Virus record (IMG/VR): IMGVR_UViG_3300045988_155985
Strand: one strand, 5' to 3'
DNA: 48,901 nucleotides
From: a virus
Taxonomy: Duplodnaviria; Heunggongvirae; Uroviricota; Caudoviricetes
Both the position numbers and the translations under genes were made by a program. Below the pieces are notes generated by a model, which saw nothing but the letters and a program-made list of their open reading frames with translations, made no database searches and had not been told where the DNA came from. Shown in pieces: positions 1,855 to 48,901 of this stretch. The first letter of the stretch is position 1. Every line of letters starts with the position of its first letter.

Positions 1855-2478
1855 ATGACAAAACATCTTAATGTGGTTTCTTTACCACTTTCTGTGTTGA
1901 TTGGTTATGAAAAGAACGCTCGCACACACTCCGTGGAGCAGGTAGATCAGATTGTTGCCAGCATACAGGAGTACGGATGGACTAATCCGATCCTGATAGA
2001 CGAGAACAACGTTGTAATTGCTGGTCATGGTCGAATTGCTGCGGCCACTCAGTTGGGGATGGATGATGTTCCCTGCATTGTTCTGGCTGGGCTAACGGAG
2101 AATCAGAAGAAGGCATATCGTCTGGCCGACAACCGTATTCCGCTGAATGCTGGTTGGGATGAAGAGTTGTTAAGCGCGGAGCTTGCAGATCTTGCGGCCG
2201 ATGATTTTGCTCTGGACTCAATTGGTTTTACTCAGCGCGAACTGGATAACTTATTGAGTGCGGCGGTCTACGATGACACAGAGGGTATGGATATCCCATT
2301 TGAGAAGGATGAGGCCAAATCAGGCGTAAAAGTTCAGTACCTGTCATTTGGAGGTCATAAAATCCCGGCAACGGATGAGGAAGCGGATCGTTTTGACTGC
2401 GCGGTGTCTCGTTATGTTGATGATAATGGCAGCTATATCGGATTTGTATCCGCATTGCTGGCTGGGGAGGTGTGCTGA
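1855..2478 (+). CDS. ParB/Srx (ParB-like nuclease) domain protein, paralog A
   Basis: IAGHGR motif and NAGWD motif typical of ParB N-terminal domain; about 55% identical by eye to the 5145-5735 product. Confidence 0.7.
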   Translation: MTKHLNVVSLPLSVLIGYEKNARTHSVEQVDQIVASIQEYGWTNPILIDENNVVIAGHGRIAAATQLGMDDVPCIVLAGLTENQKKAYRLADNRIPLNAGWDEELLSAELADLAADDFALDSIGFTQRELDNLLSAAVYDDTEGMDIPFEKDEAKSGVKVQYLSFGGHKIPATDEEADRFDCAVSRYVDDNGSYIGFVSALLAGEVC

Positions 2479-3851
2479 TGCTTCACCTGAATTACGACAT
2501 AACGCACCTACGCGGCGCGGAATATAACCCGCGTTTTATCGGTGAGGATGATCTTGCGAGGCTGGCCGAAAGCGTCAGGGAGCTGGGGCTTGTGAAGCCA
2601 TTGATAGTGCGCGGCGATTTGCTGGTGGCGGGACACCAAAGGACGAAGGCGCTACGTAAGTTGGGAATAACGCGTGCTGCGGTGTATGTGTTGCCCTGTG
2701 AAACGACGGTATACGACGAAGTTCGGTTTAACCAACTGCATAACGGAACGGATTTTGATAGCGGAGATGAGCGTTGCAGGGTGTCCGGTCTGGAAGATAA
2801 GCATGGTTTTGTTCAGGTATCGGCAAGCCAGATCTCAGGCAATATGCGCGCGAAAATGGCATATGTTCGAAAGAACATAGCGGAACTGGTTATCAAGTAT
2901 GGTCCGTGGGGTGGTTGTGTTGCTACTCAGTCTGGTGAGGTTATTCACTGTGCTCAGTATGCATTAGCAGCGAAAATGACGCGCACACCGCTAACGGTGT
3001 TTGTGATCCCTGATGTTGAGAAGGAAAAATACCAAAGTTATCTGAATAAAACTTATGGTGTATTTGAGTATTCTCATCTGGAGAAAACAACATACATCCA
3101 GACGTATGCGCAGCTTATGCGGTTGCGTAATGGTGGCAGCCTGAAATCAAACCTGTATGAGTCGTTGATCCTCCCGATCATTGCCAAGACGCCAAGAGGA
3201 ATTGATTTTGGTTCGGGGCAGGGAGACTACGCGCGAATGCTCAGGGCAAAGGGATATAACCTGCATGATCTCGAGCTTTTCCGCCGTAAGGGCGCTGGAA
3301 ACACTCTGGATAGGACCGCAACAAACCGGATGATTGATACGCTGGTGGACGACTTAAAAACGCGAGGGCGTTACGACTACGTGATTTGCGATAGCGTTTT
3401 GAACTCGGTCGATAGTGTCGAGGCTGAATGGTCCGTTCTGACGGTTCTGAAAGGCCTGTGTAAAGCTGGTGGGTCAATATTCTTTTCTGGTCGTAGCCGT
3501 GGAGAGCTGGAAACAGTCCTGAAGCAAACACAAGCGGCGAGTTCCAAAAGCCGGCTTTATTTTATTGATCATAACGGTTTTACCGCGTTGTACCGGAAGG
3601 GGCACTGGTTTTACCAGAAGTTTCACTCTGATGATGAAGTGAAGCAGTTGTGTCGTGTACATGGTTTCAGGATTAAGCGGTCAATATTCAACTGTAAGAG
3701 CTGGTATTTGCACGTCATTAACGATGATTCCCTTAGTTGGGCGAGTCTGGAGAAAGCTGTTCGTTTTGAGTTTGAGTTGCCGTTGCCTGGTGGTTCAACA
3801 ATCGGACGATCTGATGATGTGCTGGCGGCTTTCCGGCCGTTGATTAAGTAG
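2478..3851 (+). CDS. fusion protein: ParB/Srx-like N-terminal domain plus class I SAM-dependent methyltransferase-like C-terminal domain
   Basis: N-terminal VAGHQRTKAL (ParB GxxR-like); C-terminal GIDFGSGQG (motif I-like), acidic post-I, YDYVICDSVL (motif II-like); ATG 2478 overlaps upstream stop (TGATG); no DPPY/NPPY motif seen. Confidence 0.6.
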   Translation: MLHLNYDITHLRGAEYNPRFIGEDDLARLAESVRELGLVKPLIVRGDLLVAGHQRTKALRKLGITRAAVYVLPCETTVYDEVRFNQLHNGTDFDSGDERCRVSGLEDKHGFVQVSASQISGNMRAKMAYVRKNIAELVIKYGPWGGCVATQSGEVIHCAQYALAAKMTRTPLTVFVIPDVEKEKYQSYLNKTYGVFEYSHLEKTTYIQTYAQLMRLRNGGSLKSNLYESLILPIIAKTPRGIDFGSGQGDYARMLRAKGYNLHDLELFRRKGAGNTLDRTATNRMIDTLVDDLKTRGRYDYVICDSVLNSVDSVEAEWSVLTVLKGLCKAGGSIFFSGRSRGELETVLKQTQAASSKSRLYFIDHNGFTALYRKGHWFYQKFHSDDEVKQLCRVHGFRIKRSIFNCKSWYLHVINDDSLSWASLEKAVRFEFELPLPGGSTIGRSDDVLAAFRPLIK

Positions 3852-3867: not shown

Positions 3868-4587
3868 GTGGCTGACAGAATTGAGATAAAGATGGATTTT
3901 TCTTCTCAGGATATTCAACGACAACTCCAGCGCCTTGAAGAACGCGAATTGCCGTTCGCAATGGCGCTTGCGGCAACCAGAACGGCAAAGGCTTCTCAGG
4001 CTGCGATTAAGAATGAAATTAATCGGGTATTTGACAGGCCCACGCCGTGGATTCAGAACTCTACTTACGTTTTGGCCGCAAAGAAGAGTGATCCTACAGC
4101 CATTGTGTATGCTCGTGAATGGGGAGGAACGCCAGCCCCTGTAACGTTGACTCCGCAAATCGAAGGTGGCCAACGACAGTACAAACGCTCAGAAGGGGCG
4201 CTAAGGGCTGGTGGATATTTGCCTAACGGCTGGCAGCTTGCTCCTGGTCCCGGCGCAAAGCTGGACAAGTACGGGAATATTTCGCGGGGGCAATTACAGC
4301 AGGTCTTATCTGGCCTAAGAGTTCAGCGAGATGCGCATCAAAATCGCCGTCAGGGCAAGCCTACGGAGTTTTTTGTTGTTCGACCTGGTACAAGTAACCC
4401 GCTTCAACCAGGCGTCTGGCAGCGCGTTGGGCGGCGTCCTACGTTGATCCTTACGTTTATCCAGCAACCTAACTATTCGCAGCGTCTTGATTGGCATGGC
4501 GTGGCGCTGCGTGCTGGTGAGGATGCGTTTGCTGATGAAGTCACAAAGGCTATTGATGACATTCTTTCTAAGACCTTCTCTCGTTAA
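3868..4587 (+). CDS. hypothetical protein, 239 aa
   Basis: ORF track; GTG start 6 nt after AGGAGG; no motif recognised. Confidence 0.5.
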   Translation: MADRIEIKMDFSSQDIQRQLQRLEERELPFAMALAATRTAKASQAAIKNEINRVFDRPTPWIQNSTYVLAAKKSDPTAIVYAREWGGTPAPVTLTPQIEGGQRQYKRSEGALRAGGYLPNGWQLAPGPGAKLDKYGNISRGQLQQVLSGLRVQRDAHQNRRQGKPTEFFVVRPGTSNPLQPGVWQRVGRRPTLILTFIQQPNYSQRLDWHGVALRAGEDAFADEVTKAIDDILSKTFSR

Positions 4588-4779
4588 TCATCGTGTGGTT
4601 GATGGTGTTGTTATGCAGAGTGTATTCACTGTGTTCTGTAGCGTCGCTCGCTGGCTGTCTGTGGGGGAGCACGAGCATCGTTTCATCGTCCGGCAGAATT
4701 GGGTCCTTCTGGCCAAAAGCGTTGGATGCGGGTCATTCGAACCCCGATGTTCGGCTAGCTAAACGTGAAAAAAGTTAGG

Positions 4780-5144
4780 TTAAAAGTTGCGGTAAAAGAA
4801 ATTTACTCATCTCATTGAAAAATATCGGGAAAACGTGATTTTTTGCTGTATTTGTGCTGGTAAAAAGAAAGTAGAAAATTTTCTTTTAGATCATCAAGAT
4901 ACGCGCAGATCTTTAACCAATGTGATGTTGTTCTGATAAAAATCGTTATAAATCATGCAAATACATCCAATCTTTTAACCAAAACACCATCGCAAGATCC
5001 TTTTTACTTATAAAAACTTAATAAAATCAGATAATTATGCTGGTTTGTGTGATTTTTTATGAGTAAAAAGATCGTCATTTTTCTCTTTTAGTATCAATAA
5101 GTTAAACAGTTTTCTTTAACCTGTTGTGTTATGGCGGTTAAAAA
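4780..5144. promoter_or_regulatory. AT-rich non-coding region upstream of the packaging genes; candidate cos/pac and/or late promoter region
   Basis: 365 bp without credible ORF; three direct repeats TCTTT(T)AACC at about 4910, 4971 and 5113; four GATC sites. Confidence 0.3.
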
Positions 5145-5735
5145 ATGGCTCTAAAAATCGAATATTTACCAGTCGGTAAGCTGCTCAGATATGCCAAAAA
5201 TTCACGGACTCATTCAGATGAGCAAGTTGAACAGTTGGTGAACAGTATCCGTGAGTTCGGTTTCACTAATCCTGTGCTGATCGATGAAAAGAATGAACTG
5301 ATTGCGGGGCATGGTCGGCTTGCAGCAGCCGAAATTCTGGAAATGGATAAAGTTCCGGCGATTCGGTTGAGTAACCTTTCTGAAAAACAGAAGAAGGCTT
5401 ACAGGATTGCAGATAACAAGCTGGCCTTAAATGCTGGCTGGGATATGCAGCTTCTGGCCGAAGAAGTCAAAGAGTTAATGGATGATGATTTTGATATTGA
5501 TCTGCTTGGGTTTAATGATGCAGAGCTTGACGAAATGTTAAGCGATGAACAGCCGCAGGAAGAAGACGATAATTCTTCCCCTGTTGTTCAAATTAAGTAC
5601 CTGGCTATTGATAAAGAACGTATTCCCGCGACGGATATGGAAATTGCATTGTTGCTGGATGTTTATCGTCAGTACCACGACGCGCATGAAACGCATGAGG
5701 GATTTGTTCAGTATCTTGCTAATGGTTGCAAGTAA
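5145..5735 (+). CDS. ParB/Srx (ParB-like nuclease) domain protein, paralog B
   Basis: IAGHGR and NAGWD motifs; immediately upstream of TerS. Confidence 0.7.
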   Translation: MALKIEYLPVGKLLRYAKNSRTHSDEQVEQLVNSIREFGFTNPVLIDEKNELIAGHGRLAAAEILEMDKVPAIRLSNLSEKQKKAYRIADNKLALNAGWDMQLLAEEVKELMDDDFDIDLLGFNDAELDEMLSDEQPQEEDDNSSPVVQIKYLAIDKERIPATDMEIALLLDVYRQYHDAHETHEGFVQYLANGCK

Positions 5736-6286
5736 TGGCCATCGTCAGTAAGTCAGAGTTTGCCCGCCGGAAAGGTATTTCTCCGGCAATGGTTACGAAG
5801 CTCTGTCGTTCCGGTCGCATTCCAGTGCTGAAAAGCGGCAAGCTGGATTTTGATAAAGCAAGTGCGGCTTATGAAGCGAGCCGACAGGTTGGTCGTGAGG
5901 TATCTGCTGAAAACGGAAAAAGAGGGCATGGGATATCTTCGGAACAACCAGAGTTACCCGCTGATGATGCCGGATTAGCTGGTGGTACTTCCGGTGTTGC
6001 GGTGCAATTCAACAAGGCTAAGACCGCAGAAAAAATTTATCAGGCAAAGCTGAAACGCCTTGAATTTGAAGAAAAGGAAGGCTCTCTCATCGCTAAAGAT
6101 GCGGTCAGGGATGATGCATTTCTGGCAGCTAATGAATTGCGTAGCCGCTTATTTAGTATTGCTCCAAGAGCAGCTCCCCGTTGTGAAGGCAAAACAGCCA
6201 GGGAGATCGAACGCATTATTGAAGACGAGATTAATTTTGCGCTTCAGGCGCTCCAGGAATCCCGATTTATTAAGCAGGAAGAATAA
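5735..6286 (+). CDS. terminase small subunit, Nu1-like HTH type
   Basis: N-terminal HTH-like segment SKSEFARRKGISPAMVTKLCRSGRIPV; position before large terminase; ATG 5735 overlaps upstream stop (track start 5726 is TTG). Confidence 0.6.
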   Translation: MAIVSKSEFARRKGISPAMVTKLCRSGRIPVLKSGKLDFDKASAAYEASRQVGREVSAENGKRGHGISSEQPELPADDAGLAGGTSGVAVQFNKAKTAEKIYQAKLKRLEFEEKEGSLIAKDAVRDDAFLAANELRSRLFSIAPRAAPRCEGKTAREIERIIEDEINFALQALQESRFIKQEE

Positions 6287-6291
6287 ACCTC

Positions 6292-8148
6292 ATGGGCGAA
6301 ACAGTATGGAGCACCGCTTTTTTCCGTGCGCTTCGCCCTAAATCACGGCTAACTGTTTCCGAATGGGCTGATAAGTATCGTCATGTAGCGCCGGGAACGT
6401 CTCCAGAGCCAGGGCCGTGGCGTACAAGCCGAGTGCCATATTTGCGTGAACCAATGGATGTTATTGGTGACGCTGATACAGAAACAGTAGTGATGCAATG
6501 TAGCTCGCAAATTGGTAAATCCGAATTACAGCTAAATGTTATGGGTTACTTTGCAGATCAGGAGCCATCTCCTCAGTTGATGATTTATCCAACGGTAGAG
6601 GCGGCTGAGGCTTTTTCAAAAGAGCGTATTGATCCGACGTTCAAATATTCCCCTGGTTTGAAACACAAGCTGCATGAAGGGAAAGAGGGGCGCGGTGCAG
6701 CCAAAAAGTCCAGCACGACTATACGTATGAAGCATTACGCTGGTGGATATATAGCACTTGTTGGTGCTAATTCCCCAGCAGGTCTTGCATCCAGGCCAAT
6801 TCGAATACTGTTAGCTGATGAGATTGATCGTTACGGTGTGACGCAGGAGGGCGACCCACTAAAACTAGGTATTCAGCGTACTACCAACTTTCATAATCGT
6901 AAGAAAGTTTTTGTTTCTACTCCTGTTTTGGAGGAAACGAGCAAAATCCACAAGTGGTTTAAGCTCTCCGATCAGCGTTACTACCATGTTCCTTGCCCAT
7001 GTTGTGGCACCATGCAGGTGATGAAATGGTCGCAAGTCAGATGGGATAAGAGCGATTCAGGTGAGGCGTTACCGGAAACGGCCAGATATGAGTGCTGTGA
7101 GTGCGGCGGGATTATGCGCGGATCTGGTAAACCAGACGTTGATTGGTTGGCGAAGGGGGTATGGATAGCTGAACATACTGGAGTTAAAGGTATTGTTGGT
7201 TTTCATATTAACAGTCTTTACTCCCCGTGGGTTGCATTGTCAGAGCTGGTTGAAGAATTTACGGAAGCAACCAGAAACCGCGATAAAAATGGATTAATGG
7301 AGTTTATTAACCTTAAGCTGGGTGAGCCATGGAAAGAGGATGCTAAAGACGATATCGATCCTGAATACTTGTTGCAACGCAGAATAAGGTTTGAAGAGTT
7401 TTTACCAGATGATGTTTTATTGTTAAGTGCTGGTGTTGACGTACAGGACACGTATTTAGTTTGTGAATTGGTCGGTTGGGGAAAAGGTAAGGAGTCATGG
7501 GGGATAGAATATAAAATATTCCCAGGTGATCCCGCACAAGATGTTGTCTGGAAACAACTTGATGAATACTTACTCCGTAGCTGGTCATTCCGTGACGGTC
7601 GAAAATTACAGATTTCTTCCGTTTGTATTGACTCTGGTGGGCATTTTACGACAGAGGTATATCGCTTTACTAAGCCGAGAGAATCAAGGCGAATATACTC
7701 TATCAGGGGGCGTGGTGGGGTAGGTTTACCATTTATAGGAAAGCCAAATAATAATAACCGTGTGGGTGCTATGTTGTTTAATTTGGGGGTTGATGATGGT
7801 AAAGGGACCATCATGGCAAGAATTAAACTACATGATCCTGGTCCTGGTTATATGCATTTCCCATTAGATTCTGACAGAGGATATGATACCGAATACTTTA
7901 AAGGATTATTATCAGAGAAAAAAATATTTGAATATAAAAATGGGCAGACAAAAGAAAAGTGGGTGAAAGTCTACGAGCGTAACGAACCTCTTGATTGCCG
8001 TAACTATGCAACTGCCGCGATGGAAATTCTGAACCCTAATTTTAACTGGCTTGCCGAACAGGAAATGCGAGGTAATGTGTATGTGCAGAACTCGTCAGGT
8101 ATACGTAGAAGACGCCGTAGAGTTATAAGTAAAGGCGTAACCATATAG
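6292..8148 (+). CDS. terminase large subunit, lambda gpA-like
   Basis: 618 aa; recalled similarity to gpA (VSEWAD near N-terminus, CPCCG zinc-finger-like segment); gene order TerS-TerL-W-portal. Confidence 0.85.
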   Translation: MGETVWSTAFFRALRPKSRLTVSEWADKYRHVAPGTSPEPGPWRTSRVPYLREPMDVIGDADTETVVMQCSSQIGKSELQLNVMGYFADQEPSPQLMIYPTVEAAEAFSKERIDPTFKYSPGLKHKLHEGKEGRGAAKKSSTTIRMKHYAGGYIALVGANSPAGLASRPIRILLADEIDRYGVTQEGDPLKLGIQRTTNFHNRKKVFVSTPVLEETSKIHKWFKLSDQRYYHVPCPCCGTMQVMKWSQVRWDKSDSGEALPETARYECCECGGIMRGSGKPDVDWLAKGVWIAEHTGVKGIVGFHINSLYSPWVALSELVEEFTEATRNRDKNGLMEFINLKLGEPWKEDAKDDIDPEYLLQRRIRFEEFLPDDVLLLSAGVDVQDTYLVCELVGWGKGKESWGIEYKIFPGDPAQDVVWKQLDEYLLRSWSFRDGRKLQISSVCIDSGGHFTTEVYRFTKPRESRRIYSIRGRGGVGLPFIGKPNNNNRVGAMLFNLGVDDGKGTIMARIKLHDPGPGYMHFPLDSDRGYDTEYFKGLLSEKKIFEYKNGQTKEKWVKVYERNEPLDCRNYATAAMEILNPNFNWLAEQEMRGNVYVQNSSGIRRRRRRVISKGVTI

Positions 8149-27985: not shown

Positions 27986-28540
27986 ATGCAATATGGTTAT
28001 GCGAGGGTGTCAACTTTTGACCAGAATTTGGAATTACAACTGGAGGCGCTCAGGAGTTTAGGATGTGACCGGATTTTTGAAGATAAAATATCCGGTGCTA
28101 AATCAAAACGACCAGGACTTGATAAGCTACTTAAGGTGTTACGGCCGGGCGATACGGTTATTGTCTGGAAGCTGGACCGAATGGGGCGTTCTCTGATTCA
28201 TCTTGTTGATTTACTTAACCATTTTTTATCAAACAACATTGAGTTTATTTCGATTACGGAAGGGATAAAAATTAGCACTTCAATTGGCCGCTTTGCCTAC
28301 ACGATGCTGAGTGCAGTCGCAGAGATGGAGCGGGAAAATATGATTGAAAGAACGCGTGCAGGATTGGCGGTGGCAAGGGCTAACGGCAGGATAGGAGGAC
28401 GCCGCTCAAAGCTGGCACCAGAGCAATGGGAACAGATCGGAAGGCTTATTGCGAATGGTGTTTCACGTAAGCGGATAGCGATTATCTTCGATGTTACCTT
28501 ATCCACGCTTTACCGCAGGTTTCCGGCTGGGAATCATTGA
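27986..28540 (+). CDS. serine-recombinase DNA invertase (Hin/Gin/Cin family)
   Basis: N-terminal GYARVSTFDQ with catalytic Ser, central resolvase motifs, C-terminal HTH; adjacent to the invertible segment. Confidence 0.9.
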   Translation: MQYGYARVSTFDQNLELQLEALRSLGCDRIFEDKISGAKSKRPGLDKLLKVLRPGDTVIVWKLDRMGRSLIHLVDLLNHFLSNNIEFISITEGIKISTSIGRFAYTMLSAVAEMERENMIERTRAGLAVARANGRIGGRRSKLAPEQWEQIGRLIANGVSRKRIAIIFDVTLSTLYRRFPAGNH

Positions 28541-29699: not shown

Positions 29700-30330
29700 C
29701 CCACCTGAATGATGAATCCGGTTTTACCGGAGGATTATCTACGTCGCAATAAAATATCTGTTCAAAAAACAATCTAAATTAATTTTCTCTAAACCTGAAC
29801 ACAGCGTAAATATCGCCTTTACAGGCATCAGCTAATCAAGTTATCCACAGTTTTGATATGTATATGCAAATGGTTTTTTATAATAGATGCACTAAACAAA
29901 TAAATGCAAAATCACTTTCTTTTATTAAAACTTTCTTTATTTAACTTACGCAGGCTTTGCCTGTGAATATGTTCGCCCTTGCAGCGAGCTAAAGCTCGCG
30001 CCGGTTCGAATCGCTACGCTCAAATATACCTCCTCCGGCACTTGCCGGAGGCATGGAGCAGCCTGATCATCCTTTTCGAAACGGCACGTTTCGAACTATA
30101 CAAAATCAATTTATATAAGGCCGAAACAAGGCCTACGGCCGGGCTTTGCAGGAGGAAGGGGCGAGCCTTATCAATAAACGTCGATAAATACGCACACAGT
30201 AGCCATCAGAACGCGATAAAACGTAAGAAACATCATTTCCTATTAGACATAGAAAACTTGTCTTATACGCAATGTAGTAAATTTCTATTGCCACATAGGA
30301 AAAGATTTCCTACCATCGTAGATATAATAA
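29700..30330. promoter_or_regulatory. candidate vegetative origin region downstream of repA
   Basis: Perfect DnaA box TTATCCACA at 29841-29849; AT-rich stretch; perfect palindromes at 29985-29998, 30032-30051 and 30075-30095. Confidence 0.4.
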
Positions 30331-32280: not shown

Positions 32281-32393
32281 TATTTATATAATTATAGATT
32301 TATATAAAAAGTGCTTTACAGGTGGGAAAAAATTTCCTAAGGTTATACCCGAAACCGAGCGATACCCGCCCTGGTTAAACCGGAGATAACCCG
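32281..32393 (+). promoter_or_regulatory. promoter-operator-leader cassette, copy B
   Basis: AT-rich repeat 32281-32310; -35-like TTTACA 32315-32320; 17-bp spacer with inverted repeat GGAAA-AAA-TTTCC; -10-like TAAGGT 32338-32343; conserved 50-nt leader. Confidence 0.5.
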
Positions 32394-32774
32394 ATGAGCA
32401 TGATTAAAATCCGCAAAAACGCTTTCCTTAAAATTCAAACTATCCTGGCTGGTTCTGTTGGCGTGATTTGCCGTTCTTCCTCAAGCCGCATCGATGACGG
32501 CTACGATGATGAGTATCGTGTGTCCTCATGCGATGAGGCTTTAACCTGGCTGAAGGAGAATCAGGAACGTGCCCAGGTATATCTGGAAACAGAGAACGGC
32601 AATCAGATGCTGCGTATTAGCGGTCGTTATGGATTTGAAACTACATTCATGGCCTATTTTAATCAGGCTTACTTTGACAAGGAGTTGGCTTGGTACACTG
32701 ATCGCATGAGCAAAAGCGAGCCAGCCCCGATTACACCGCCGAACAATAAACCATTTTTATTCCTCGTTAAGTAA
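32394..32774 (+). CDS. hypothetical protein, 126 aa, first gene of cassette B
   Basis: ORF track; ATG within conserved leader context. Confidence 0.5.
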   Translation: MSMIKIRKNAFLKIQTILAGSVGVICRSSSSRIDDGYDDEYRVSSCDEALTWLKENQERAQVYLETENGNQMLRISGRYGFETTFMAYFNQAYFDKELAWYTDRMSKSEPAPITPPNNKPFLFLVK

Positions 32775-35253: not shown

Positions 35254-35418
35254 TGTGATGATTCCCTTAAAGGTTAAGGATACTCACCACCGTCAGGTTC
35301 CAATCATTGGGTGGTGAGACGTGCAGGGTTGGAACTACCGGACACAATGACGAACCGGCGAGTCTTACGACTCCCCCGCACGCCCCACCATAATTTGGGT
35401 GTAGCAGTGCTTTACGCA

Positions 35419-35440
35419 TAAAAAAACCGCTAACGCGGTA
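35419..35440 (-). terminator. minus-strand rho-independent terminator
   Basis: On the minus strand: hairpin ACCGCGTTAGCGGT followed by TTTTTTT. Confidence 0.5.
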
Positions 35441-35585
35441 TGCGCCATTGTGTCTACGGGGTTCCAATCCCGACCGTAGATTTTGCTACGGCTCGGAAAG
35501 TGTCCACCAATGGCGCATTCATGTCAATACGGCGGGATTTTAACAGAGACAACCACATAGCGTGGGTTTATTGGTAGGCAGAAAC

Positions 35586-35760: not shown

Positions 35761-35999
35761 AATGAAGTTTTTTAACTTCTTCGGATGTAATTACATGTAA
35801 TAAAAGCATTTGTTATTCCTTCATTATGAAGGCGAGGACGTGTAATATGGCTTGGGGCCTTTTCGCCGATTCGCACCCGGGCACCGACTTTAAGGAAAGG
35901 ATCATCCACTTGCCGTACACGCAAGCACAAGCGGTGTGCTTGCTCTCGCGTCATTTTCGTCGGTGGAGATGCCGTGAAACGGCCTGTAAGGGCCACACA

Positions 36000-36122
36000 A
36001 TGAAAAAATACTACATGTGTATTTTTATCGTTGTTACTGGAGCTTTGTTTACGCCACATGGGGAGGGTTGGAAGATTACTGATAACGCTCTGAATGTGAC
36101 GATAAACATTAGCAGCAAGTAG
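36000..36122 (+). CDS. small hydrophobic peptide, 40 aa
   Basis: MKKYYMCIFIVVTGALF N-terminus; ATG 36000; strong terminator immediately downstream. Confidence 0.3.
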   Translation: MKKYYMCIFIVVTGALFTPHGEGWKITDNALNVTINISSK

Positions 36123-36128
36123 CGATTA

Positions 36129-36150
36129 GGCCCCTTCGGGGGCCTTTTTT
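36129..36150 (+). terminator. rho-independent terminator
   Basis: Hairpin GGCCCC-TTCG-GGGGCC followed by TTTTTT. Confidence 0.6.
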
Positions 36151-41166: not shown

Positions 41167-41285
41167 AAATCTATAAATATATAATTATAGATTTATATAA
41201 AAAGTGCTTTACAGGTGGGAAAAAATTTCCTAAGGTTATACCCGAAACCGAGCGATACCCGCCCTGGTTAAACCGGAGAAATCTG
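41167..41285 (+). promoter_or_regulatory. promoter-operator-leader cassette, copy C
   Basis: AT-rich repeat 41167-41203; TTTACA 41208-41213; spacer with GGAAA-AAA-TTTCC; TAAGGT 41231-41236; conserved leader. Confidence 0.5.
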
Positions 41286-42353
41286 ATGAATAAACAAGAA
41301 ATTATTTCTGACTGGATCAACAACCCTAACAGCCTGTTAAGCACTGATACTGGCTACCTATTACGCCATGTTAATGGTCGTATGGTCAAAAGCGATGAGC
41401 ACGAAACCTTTTTCTTTGTTGAAGACGATGGGCGCATCTATGAGGATGGTTACTCTTATGAAGCCCAAACTGGTTGTATCCCTGCGGAGCTGGTGGACGT
41501 AACAGAAGATCTGCGCAAAGCATGGCTTGAACAGCAGCAGCGCGGAGATGATTACGTAAACACCTATCAGGAACGCCAGAACGCGCGTCTTGCCCGATAT
41601 ATTGCTCGTGCAGAAAAAGCCAGAAAAGAAGGTGCGGTAGCGCATAAGCGAGCGCATGACCTGTTGGATGTGATCCCGTTAGGCCAGCCGATTTTAGTTG
41701 ACCATTATAGCGCGAAAGGCCATCGCCGCCGTTTGTCTAAAGCTGATGCGTTATTAAGAAAAGCGTTTGTTGAATGCGAAAGTAAAGCATCACACTACGA
41801 GAGCAAAGCCGCAGGTGTTGGTCGTAATGGAATTTCGTCTGATGATCCTGATGCGCTATTTAAGTTGCTTCGTAAGCTGCAAGGCTGCATGAAGTCACAC
41901 GTCAAAATGAAGGCCGCAAATAAGGCCATTCGCAAATACAAAAAAGACCAATTACAGCAGCTTTCTGCATTAATCGATCTCAGGTTTACAGAAAGCGAAG
42001 CCAAAGAGTTACTGGCCGGAGATTTCTGTGGGCGCATCGGATTCCCTTCATACGCACTGAGCAACAATAACGCCGAAATCAAACGACTACAGAGCCGTAT
42101 TAAGGAGCTTGAATCGGTCAAGTCTGTAACAGGAGCACAGCGCGAAGAATACGACGGCTTTTCTATGGAGATAGATCCAGAGGATAACCGCATCCTGTTT
42201 TATTTCCCTGGCAAACCAGAGGCAAACATTCGTTCGCTGCTTAAATCACGCGCCTTTAAGTGGAGTCCAACCCGTAATGCATGGGTTCGCAAGATTACTC
42301 CAAACGCCCTGGCTGATGCCCGATATCTAAAAGAATCGCTATTGAAAGCCTGA
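41286..42353 (+). CDS. hypothetical protein, 355 aa, first gene of cassette C
   Basis: ORF track; basic helical C-terminal half; no catalytic motif recognised. Confidence 0.5.
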   Translation: MNKQEIISDWINNPNSLLSTDTGYLLRHVNGRMVKSDEHETFFFVEDDGRIYEDGYSYEAQTGCIPAELVDVTEDLRKAWLEQQQRGDDYVNTYQERQNARLARYIARAEKARKEGAVAHKRAHDLLDVIPLGQPILVDHYSAKGHRRRLSKADALLRKAFVECESKASHYESKAAGVGRNGISSDDPDALFKLLRKLQGCMKSHVKMKAANKAIRKYKKDQLQQLSALIDLRFTESEAKELLAGDFCGRIGFPSYALSNNNAEIKRLQSRIKELESVKSVTGAQREEYDGFSMEIDPEDNRILFYFPGKPEANIRSLLKSRAFKWSPTRNAWVRKITPNALADARYLKESLLKA

Positions 42354-47813: not shown

Positions 47814-47889
47814 GGCCCCTTAGCTCAGTGGTTAGAGCAGGCGACTCATAATCGCACGGTCATCGGTTCAAATCCGGTAGGGGCCACCA
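47814..47889 (+). tRNA. tRNA with CAU anticodon (Met or lysidine-dependent Ile2; resembles ileX-type)
   Basis: Perfect 7-bp acceptor stem GGCCCCT/AGGGGCC; D-arm GCTC/GAGC; anticodon loop CTCATAA; T-arm with TTCAAAT; encoded 3' CCA. Confidence 0.85.
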
Positions 47890-48197: not shown

Positions 48198-48785
48198 ATG
48201 GAGGCAATTGCATTGTTTAATCTGATTTATGCAGATCCCCCCTGGGAATACAAAGACAAGTGTAAGGATGGGAATCGTGGCGCTGGTTTTAAGTATCCAA
48301 CGATGAAAGCTGAGGATATTGCTCGTATTCCTGTCTGGCAGCTTGCTAATCCTGAATCGTGTTTGTTGGCCATGTGGTGGGTTCCGACTCAGCCAGAAGA
48401 AGCGTTGCTGGTGGTGAAAGCATGGGGATTCAGGCTGATGACCATGAAGGGCTTCACATGGAACAAATGTGGTAGCCGACAGCCAGACAAGCTGGTGATG
48501 GGGATGGGGCATATGACTCGTGCAAACAGTGAAGATTGCTTGTTTGCGGTAAAAGGCAAACTGCCGACCCGCCTTGATGCGGGGATTATTCAGTCGTTTA
48601 CATCGCCTCGTCTGGAGCATTCTCGGAAGCCTGATGTGGTCCGTGACAAGCTGGTAAAGCTGTTAGGCGATGTTCCTCGTATTGAGCTGTTTGCTCGCGG
48701 TGATTTACCTGATGGCTGGCATGGCTGGGGCAACCAGTGCAACGGAGGTATCCAGTTGCATGATGCTCTCTGGCAAATGTCATAG
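48198..48785 (+). CDS. DNA N6-adenine methyltransferase, MT-A70 family
   Basis: LIYADPPWEY (DPPW motif); 195 aa. Confidence 0.75.
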   Translation: MEAIALFNLIYADPPWEYKDKCKDGNRGAGFKYPTMKAEDIARIPVWQLANPESCLLAMWWVPTQPEEALLVVKAWGFRLMTMKGFTWNKCGSRQPDKLVMGMGHMTRANSEDCLFAVKGKLPTRLDAGIIQSFTSPRLEHSRKPDVVRDKLVKLLGDVPRIELFARGDLPDGWHGWGNQCNGGIQLHDALWQMS

Positions 48786-48901
48786 AATTATATAATTATA
48801 GATTTATATAAAAAATGCTTTACAGGTGGGAAAAAATTTCCTAAGGTTATACCCGAAACCGAGCGATACCCGCCCTGGTTAAACCGGAGATAACCCGATG
48901 A
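48786..48901 (+). promoter_or_regulatory. promoter-operator-leader cassette, copy D (same physical copy as window start on the circle)
   Basis: AT-rich repeat 48786-48815; TTTACA 48819-48824; spacer with GGAAA-AAA-TTTCC; TAAGGT 48842-48847; leader continues as 1-55. Confidence 0.5.

Follow-up and report, generated by a model that had tools for sequence, protein, structure and literature searches.

The cohesive-end sites (cos) of lambda-like phages contain a 7-bp element, cosQ, which is highly conserved within this group (PMC4669245) and essential for cutting the downstream cos (PMC4856287). In lambda itself, the nick that generates the 12-nt cohesive end GGGCGGCGACCT has CG directly on its left, and cosN is followed by a TCG.CTA motif, an A/T-rich spacer and three 16-bp R sites distributed over 120 bp. 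Phage N15, whose prophage is a plasmid, also has 12-nt ends, which are combined with a single R3-type site, one proposed accessory site and a terS gene 89 bp from the end (PMC4669245). At the pac site of phage SPP1, bent AT-rich DNA of a few hundred base pairs contains several recognition sites (PMC4669245). Here we describe a gap of 557 bp, poor in open reading frames (ORFs), at positions 4588–5144 of the viral DNA record IMGVR_UViG_3300045988_155985, a stretch of 48.9 kb (48,901 nucleotides) that we call the window. We interpret the gap as the probable cos region of an Escherichia phage-plasmid of ~48 kb and myovirus type; it follows the plan of lambda and includes an array of sites that would be read by TerS, the recognition subunit of the terminase. 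An earlier note had flagged the interval 4780–5144 as a candidate cos or pac site near the genes for a ParB-like protein, TerS and TerL. This idea was right in kind and wrong in placement: the site is just upstream of these genes, but the flagged interval is probably the recognition array adjoining the cos cut, and the cut itself is predicted at 4731–4742, outside the interval and in the part of the gap with normal GC content.

The proposed signal for the termination of packaging is the cosQ-like heptamer GGGTCCT at 4701–4707 on the plus strand, which is kept in all close relatives of the window and in the Vibrio phages X29, XM1 and Rostov 7. It is followed on the same strand by a 23-bp spacer ending in GCG (4708–4730) and by the 12-mer GGTCATTCGAAC (4731–4742), the putative cohesive end of cosN, with proposed nicks at 4730/4731 in the top strand and 4742/4743 in the bottom strand. 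The same heptamer stands 23 bp before the nick in lambda (48473–48479) and in N15. We take it to be the cosQ of lambda, based on the coordinates reported for cosQ (Wieczorek and Feiss 2001), on the high conservation of this 7-bp element and on the comparison of lambda with N15. The 23-bp spacing also recurs in the Vibrio phages and in more than 80 loci from the IMG/VR database. The CG directly to the left of the nick, within GCG, fits the rule for lambda-like phages quoted in PMC4669245. Nowhere in the gap is conservation among close relatives higher than in the cosQ–cosN block, and 18 of their 19 distinct sequences have the 12-mer unchanged.

The position of the cut is indicated by the ends of deposited genomes. 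Three phages plating on Yersinia pestis are nearly identical to the window (97–99.7% identity across the gap). The records of two of them, vB_YpM_39 and vB_YpM_41, start with GGTCATTCGAAC|CCCG (4731) and end with GGATGCG, whereas the record of the third, vB_YpM_44, starts at CCCG (4743) and ends with the 12-mer. Breaks on both sides of one 12-mer are expected from assemblies of cos phages with filled-in cohesive ends. These deposited ends lie 38–49 bp from the flagged interval and not elsewhere on the circle. The linear records of the Vibrio phages X29, phi 2, Rostov 7 and XM1 terminate at the corresponding site. In XM1, the homologous 12-mer GGTGCTCGCGAC is present at either end, and the X29 record breaks within one base of it. 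The authors of the X29 genome report steep drop-offs in coverage at the contig ends. In locus L038, the contig of a more distant relative (IMGVR_UViG_3300045988_118791, positions 1–25), the remnant of an Illumina adapter, GCTCTTCCGATCT, is joined directly to GGTAGGCGCGGC|CCCG, and we read this junction as a physical DNA end at the homologous site. The presence of the 12-mer at both ends of XM1 and next to the adapter in L038 fits the fill-in of a 5' overhang during end repair; we tentatively infer a 5' polarity of the overhang from these two records. More generally, true ends of virion DNA can be recognised in public metagenome assemblies by untrimmed adapters at the ends of contigs.

When IMG/VR was scanned for exact matches to GGGTCCT-N20-GCGGGT-N9-CCCG, this arrangement was present in more than 120 viral contigs among the matches listed. 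Eighty of the loci (L047–L126) were examined, and in most of those that extend far enough, a gene for a TerL of the lambda gpA type starts 590–880 bp downstream of the predicted nick. The recurring position of TerL indicates that the signature is a widespread type of cos and does not match by chance. CTAG at about +25 is also present in many unrelated loci for which the cosQ–cosN pattern was the sole criterion of selection, and it is outside that pattern. We assign 4701–4742 as a predicted lambda-type cosQ–cosN site. The heptamer of lambda cosQ with its 23-bp spacing occurs far outside the lambdoid siphoviruses, in myoviruses of Escherichia and Vibrio and in the uncultured viruses found in the scan, and this distribution is relevant to the recognition of the downstream cos by gpA-type terminases. 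The scanned pattern as a whole looks like a broad class of cos sites.

The segment between cosN and the first repeat (4743–4777, plus strand) contains CCCG, the conserved sequence TCGGCTAGCT with CTAGCT at 4755–4760, and an A-tract, and corresponds in an alignment with the relatives, lambda and N15 to the I2 position of lambda. Counted from the first base of the cohesive end, lambda, N15, the window and its relatives share one register: CCCG or CGCG at 13–16, TCG.CTA at about 20–30, an A/T tract, and the first repeat at +45 to +50 (about +48 to +50 in lambda and the window). As the earlier note stated, the interval that follows is AT-rich and free of ORFs. The GC content is 0.28–0.32 across 4800–5249 and 0.45–0.54 in the flanks, and no ORF longer than 33 residues occurs within 4780–5144.

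The array consists of nine copies of the motif GGTWAAARR on both strands of 4778–5144. S1 (GGTTAAAAG, 4778–4786, plus strand, conservation 0.93) occupies +48 to +56 from the left end, the R3 position of lambda, and is followed by S2 (GGTAAAAGA, 4791–4799, plus, conservation 0.78) and S3 (GGTAAAAAG, 4859–4867, plus). The next three copies are on the minus strand and read, on the top strand, TCTTTAACC for S4 (4910–4918), CTTTTAACC for S5 (4972–4980) and CTTTTTACT for S6 (5000–5008). S7 (AGTAAAAAG, 5062–5070, plus, conservation 0.93) has the sequence GGTAAAAAG in relatives; S6 and S7 are both AGTAAAAAG, each with one mismatch to the motif, and form an inverted pair (inverted repeat I1 of this locus). 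S8 is again on the minus strand (top strand TCTTTAACC, 5113–5121), and S9 (GGTTAAAAA, 5136–5144, plus), the weakest and least conserved copy (0.59), directly precedes the start codon of the ParB-like gene. The three direct repeats TCTTT(T)AACC recognised previously are real and begin at 4910, 4971 (as TCTTTTAACC, 4971–4980) and 5113; they correspond to S4, S5 and S8 and belong to this larger family of about nine copies in both orientations. The segment S3–S4 (module A, opened by S3) recurs 203 bp downstream as S7–S8, apparently as an old duplication. The deposited genome of vB_YpM_44 (OR545055.1) lacks the 90 bp at 4869–4958, which include S4 and the GATC sites at 4889 and 4908. An RNA hairpin formed by S8 and S9 over the start of the ParB-like gene is no better than in shuffled sequences (z = −0.26).

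Seven of the ten exact matches to GGTWAAARR in the window are within the 367 bp of 4778–5144. Dinucleotide-preserving shuffles of 4743–5144 contain 0.09 matches on average and none of 5000 reached seven, but this figure is inflated because the pattern was chosen after the data had been seen, and conservation allows a fairer assessment. When four lineages are aligned, conservation is 0.79 in the motif columns and 0.53 in the other columns, and none of 10,000 random placements of the motifs was as good. The motif differs among lineages: it is GGTWAAAAG in the window and in the groups represented by L019 and L027, GGTTAACAA in at least ten copies in L031, GTTAACAC/G in five direct copies in the Vibrio X29 group, and GGTAACT in three copies at the R3 position in L038, whereas L041 and L097 contain a GTTCATGAAC-type palindrome. 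All copies within a lineage change together, and the first repeat has the same position in L031 and the Vibrio phages. Such concerted change at fixed positions indicates recognition of the sites by a single protein that has drifted in its specificity.

The IHF consensus WATCARNNNNTTR, which occurs nine times in the whole window, is matched twice in the array on the plus strand. The first, AATCAGATAATTA at 5025–5037, is between S6 (minus) and S7 (plus), and the second, TATCAATAAGTTA at 5092–5104, is between S7 (plus) and S8 (minus). At both sites the flanks are conserved across lineages, and the N4 positions are variable. IHF is presumably used at both of them. The succession S7(+)–IHF–S8(−) mirrors R3–I1–R2 of lambda (PMC4669245).

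TerS, the recognition subunit of the terminase family, is the best candidate for the reader of the repeats, as suggested by sequence comparisons and a structural model. The protein (5735–6286, plus strand) is 183 residues long counted from the ATG at 5735, belongs to phrog_57 (E = 7e-42) and has a predicted N-terminal winged helix-turn-helix domain. Weak matches, though in consistent positions, were obtained with its first 40 residues to helix-turn-helix families, to P2 Cox (E = 0.013) and to gpNu1, for which a profile comparison aligned residues 3–33 alone at 4.5% probability. Sequence searches with TerS against the PDB gave nothing significant. The AlphaFold2 model contains an N-terminal beta-alpha-alpha-beta-alpha domain (predicted local distance difference test score ~89), a disordered linker and a helical C-terminal part. 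Foldseek matches to the model were almost all winged helix-turn-helix proteins of the MerR/Xis type (RacA, BldC and excisionases), all with E > 0.4; the N-terminal domain of a lambda-type TerS (6hn7_B) was ranked 48th and was not significant. The repeat motif tracks the recognition helix of TerS at least as well as the C-terminal half of the ParB-like protein, and the recognition helix in L038 closely resembles that of the Vibrio phages (SHVWV.KL). The TerS of L029, with an apparent identity of 49%, was considered as a natural experiment and proved uninformative, since the gene (2924–3463) is frameshifted after about 17 codons in this otherwise close relative, which reflects either a defective prophage or a sequencing error. 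The interval 4780–5144 is most likely a cosB-like docking array for TerS, and the repeats are the best candidates for the TerS-binding sites that had been anticipated near a Nu1/gpA-like terminase. The gpA half of that description applies to TerL, as judged from Pfam; the Nu1 half does not extend to TerS.

Based on the position of the cohesive end, the arrangement of the repeats and the comparison with lambda, a mechanism of packaging can be proposed. The gpA-type TerL would introduce nicks staggered by 12 nt at GGTCATTCGAAC, resulting in 5'-protruding cohesive ends. The AT-rich interval would serve as the equivalent of cosB, with its nine GGTWAAARR sites read by the N-terminal winged helix-turn-helix domain of TerS. 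TerS bound to the first site, at +48, may position TerL on cosN. The two IHF-type bends may bring oppositely oriented sites together. Packaging would then proceed rightwards into the genes for the ParB-like protein, TerS and TerL, and GGGTCCT would fulfil the role of cosQ at the cutting of the next cos, with which packaging ends.

Judged by its sequence features, the site is a cos that would work like that of lambda, with most of the structural features of that class. The likeness extends to the genes, since the gpA-type TerL downstream is followed by a lambda-type portal and a ClpP-like protease. The cos does not belong to the strict lambda cohesive-end group, because the 12-mer GGTCATTCGAAC differs from GGGCGGCGACCT, with which it has few bases in common, CC stands on its right, and TerS falls outside the Nu1 family, which it resembles at the level of the winged helix-turn-helix only. 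Furthermore, the window has nine 9-bp repeats over ~370 bp where lambda has three R sites, a ParB/Srx-like gene separates cos from terS, the virion is that of a myovirus and the prophage is a plasmid. The last feature is shared with N15, as are the cosQ heptamer with its spacing and the 12-nt ends. Closest in layout is the Vibrio X29 group, in which the order cosQ, cosN, repeats, ParB-like gene, TerS, TerL is the same, the 12-mer is homologous and X29 is reported to have defined ends. Nevertheless, the five repeats of this group are in one orientation within ~90 bp, and the genome end is 140–150 bp from the ParB-like gene. No description of a cos was seen in publications on phages of the X29 group.

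Several observations weigh against this assignment. The ends were placed from the records of relatives and not from virion DNA of the exact window sequence; the Yersinia records, for which literature searches found no paper, carry the label circular, and their starts could in principle be editorial choices. The cohesive end is flanked on the right by CC (in CCCG) and not by the CG of the lambda group. The array is about three times as long as the cosB of lambda, and one of its repeats, S4, is probably dispensable, since it is deleted in vB_YpM_44. TerS has no Pfam match to Nu1, and its fold matches are not significant. Finally, arrays of at least five copies occur only where a ParB-like gene separates cos from terS, as in the group of the window, L031 and the Vibrio X29 group. 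Most loci in which terS directly follows cos, after a spacer of 60–260 bp, have fewer than three copies of any 7-mer.

The co-occurrence of long arrays with the ParB-like gene implicates the ParB-like protein no less than TerS, and the coincidence is the point of wider interest at this locus. As the main alternative, the array could be a binding or loading platform for the ParB/Srx-like protein encoded at 5145–5735, with TerS using at most the first one or two sites. The protein would then be an accessory factor of the cos end that, for example, protects the end, bridges DNA or controls the access of terminase. The order of the genes for the ParB-like protein, TerS and TerL is kept from Escherichia to the Vibrio X29 group. 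However, the 196-residue protein has a ParB N-terminal domain alone (Pfam ParB_N only; phrog_620); a helix-turn-helix was not detected in it, and its matches in the PDB cover just that domain. L038 keeps its three related repeats at the R3 position, yet a ParB-like gene is absent between cos and terS and from the 6 kb examined. The motif, as described above, follows the recognition helix of TerS at least as well as the C-terminal half of the ParB-like protein. Literature searches on ParB-like proteins near terminases found no packaging role for them. We regard the ParB-like protein as an unlikely main user of the array.

A compromise, which we consider rather improbable, is that the long array and the ParB/Srx-like gene together form an undescribed accessory module of cos, in which TerS and the ParB-like protein share the platform. 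In this reading, the ParB/Srx-like protein, which lacks a helix-turn-helix and is possibly nucleotide-dependent, would be recruited to the array or spread from it at the end of the DNA that is packaged first. If such a module exists, the protein would aid the assembly of terminase, or protect or mark that end.

Transcriptional control offers another explanation of the AT-rich array, and late-promoter control, tied to the GATC cluster, had also been raised in the earlier note. The repeats would be operators of the operon of the ParB-like gene, terS and terL, under an activator-dependent late promoter or H-NS-type silencing, and the cos function would be confined to 4701–4799. The array does reach the start codon of the ParB-like gene, S8 and S9 flank the ribosome-binding region, and the region is AT-rich with many A-tracts. 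These features are compatible with a role as cosB, for example through autoregulation by TerS. No sigma-70-like promoter was found in 4300–5400, where shuffled sequences average 2.4, and no plus-strand terminator in this stretch separates the packaging genes from the genes upstream on the same strand. An activator-dependent promoter or TerS autoregulation could be present instead of a consensus sigma-70 promoter. A ~105-bp element resembling a promoter with a leader, which runs from 48775 across the end of the window to 75, could drive transcription through the region, as the late transcript of lambda crosses cos. The fixed distance of the first repeat from the nick across lineages, equal to that of R3, also speaks for cos. 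We consider it quite unlikely that transcriptional control is the main function of the array.

In phage P1, GATC sites adjoin the repeats of pac, and packaging is under Dam control. The window has four GATC sites in the flagged interval, at 4889, 4908, 4996 and 5070, in the number given by the earlier note, which had offered Dam-sensitive packaging as a further possibility. Four sites are a modest excess over the 0.78 expected locally, and 31 of 5000 shuffles reach this number. Two of the sites, 4996 and 5070, are kept in most of the other lineages, where they abut the inverted pair S6/S7; in the window, 4996 abuts S6 and 5070 overlaps S7. Nevertheless, 1.75% of the 365-bp windows of this genome contain at least four GATC sites. 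Of the other two sites, 4889 and 4908, each is missing from one near-identical Yersinia phage record, and vB_YpM_44 lacks both through its deletion; L031 lacks any aligned GATC, and L029 and L034 lack the one at 5070. The terminase is of the gpA type with fixed ends and is not a P1-type pacase. Control of packaging or late expression by methylation of the GATC cluster is therefore weakly founded and very unlikely, and the site does not show the features of a P1-type Dam-controlled pac. The resemblance to SPP1 is limited to the several recognition sites in AT-rich DNA; both SPP1 and P1 differ from the window, which has fixed cohesive ends instead of headful packaging, a gpA-type terminase and mostly unconserved GATC sites. 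Genome-wide, GATC is rarer than in dinucleotide-preserving shuffles (132 versus 167 ± 11), and all of 100 shuffles had at least 132.

In general terms, the short repeats, an AT-rich stretch suited to unwinding, the IHF-consensus matches and the few GATC sites recall an origin of the iteron type. A replication origin for plasmid maintenance or lytic replication in the gap is nevertheless extremely improbable. The repA gene is ~24 kb away and has next to it the single perfect DnaA box of the window and three near-perfect boxes, whereas 4588–5144 contains no such box. The repeats near repA are unrelated to GGTWAAARR, and in the Vibrio X29 group an array of this kind is kept at an equal distance from the genome ends. 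The DnaA boxes (perfect at 29841–29849, with one mismatch at 28499, 30342 and 30418) likely mark the plasmid origin, at ~28.5–30.4 kb. A parS centromere of a ParABS system was rejected, as the ParB-like protein has the ParB_N domain alone, the motif is not palindromic and the X29-group phages keep the module. In the homologous plasmid of Escherichia coli ATCC 25922 (NZ_CP009073), ~16 kb separate the ParB-like gene from the ParA gene upstream of it (~32 kb in the other direction round the circle), and ParA stands next to a small partner gene of its own.

The region of the window around the gap is 97–99.8% identical to circular plasmids of ~48 kb in 72 of 5426 complete E. coli genomes, including that of ATCC 25922, a reference strain. 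It is also nearly identical to two partial records of Escherichia phages. In the RefSeq annotation of the ATCC 25922 plasmid, a complete set of myovirus genes is combined with repA, a toxin-antitoxin pair and a gene for ParA, and the window is accordingly a myovirus-type phage-plasmid of Escherichia. In PLSDB, most plasmids of the family come from Escherichia; E. fergusonii and Klebsiella aerogenes contribute one each, and a group from Salmonella is more distant. As the closest distinct relatives, X29, phi 2, Rostov 7 and XM1 (vB_VpaM_XM1) have TerL proteins 63–66% identical to that of the window, and they form the proposed family 'Weiviridae' (PMC11432961). Literature searches on the Yersinia phages, vB_EcoM-613R2 and XM1 found no description of this cos site. 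The analysis places the genome ends of a common family of ~48-kb Escherichia phage-plasmids for which no published description of cos was found. It also gives exact coordinates for a proposed minimal cos cassette, ~4690–5144, which can be used in transduction assays, in cosmid-type vectors and as a guide to genome start points.

The gap is bounded on the left by a gene for a 239-residue protein (3868–4587, plus strand). Two ORFs of 61 and 91 residues over 4487–4778, which cover cosQ and cosN, are unannotated in homologous records, and relatives have insertions and deletions there. Neither ARAGORN nor Rfam found a tRNA or another RNA in 4400–5400, even at E values up to 1. On the right, the genes for the ParB/Srx-like protein and TerS are followed on the plus strand by that for TerL (6292–8148; Pfam GpA_ATPase, E = 7e-76, and GpA_nuclease, E = 2e-84). 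Genes for a gpW-like adaptor, the lambda-family portal and the ClpP-type protease are located 3' of TerL on the same strand.

The window contains two further plus-strand genes with a ParB/Srx N-terminal domain, a short one at 1855–2478 and a fusion of ParB_N with a methyltransferase at 2472–3851. None of the three genes, including that at 5145–5735, adjoins the ParA gene of the plasmid. The two short paralogues are 49% identical to each other.

The ~105-bp element occurs three times, at 32284–32397, 41172–41290 and 48775–48901 continuing into 1–75, and the copies are near-identical over ~100 bp. Each opens with the AT-rich palindrome TATATAATTATA, contains TTTACA and ends at the ATG of a plus-strand gene; the third copy is 4.9 kb upstream of cos on the same strand. 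The element looks like a common promoter or operator plus leader for three operons.

A tRNA with the anticodon CAT at 47814–47889 was classified by ARAGORN as tRNA-Met, whereas its homologue in ATCC 25922 is annotated as tRNA-Ile; it is probably a tRNA-Ile2 of the lysidine type. Rfam matches above the gathering score were obtained for the C4 antisense RNA (the immunity RNA of the P1/P7 type), isrK and ryfA, located at 35307–35395 (minus strand), 35420–35492 (minus) and 35853–36150 (plus). These matches suggest that immunity in this phage-plasmid involves an antirepressor controlled by antisense RNA.

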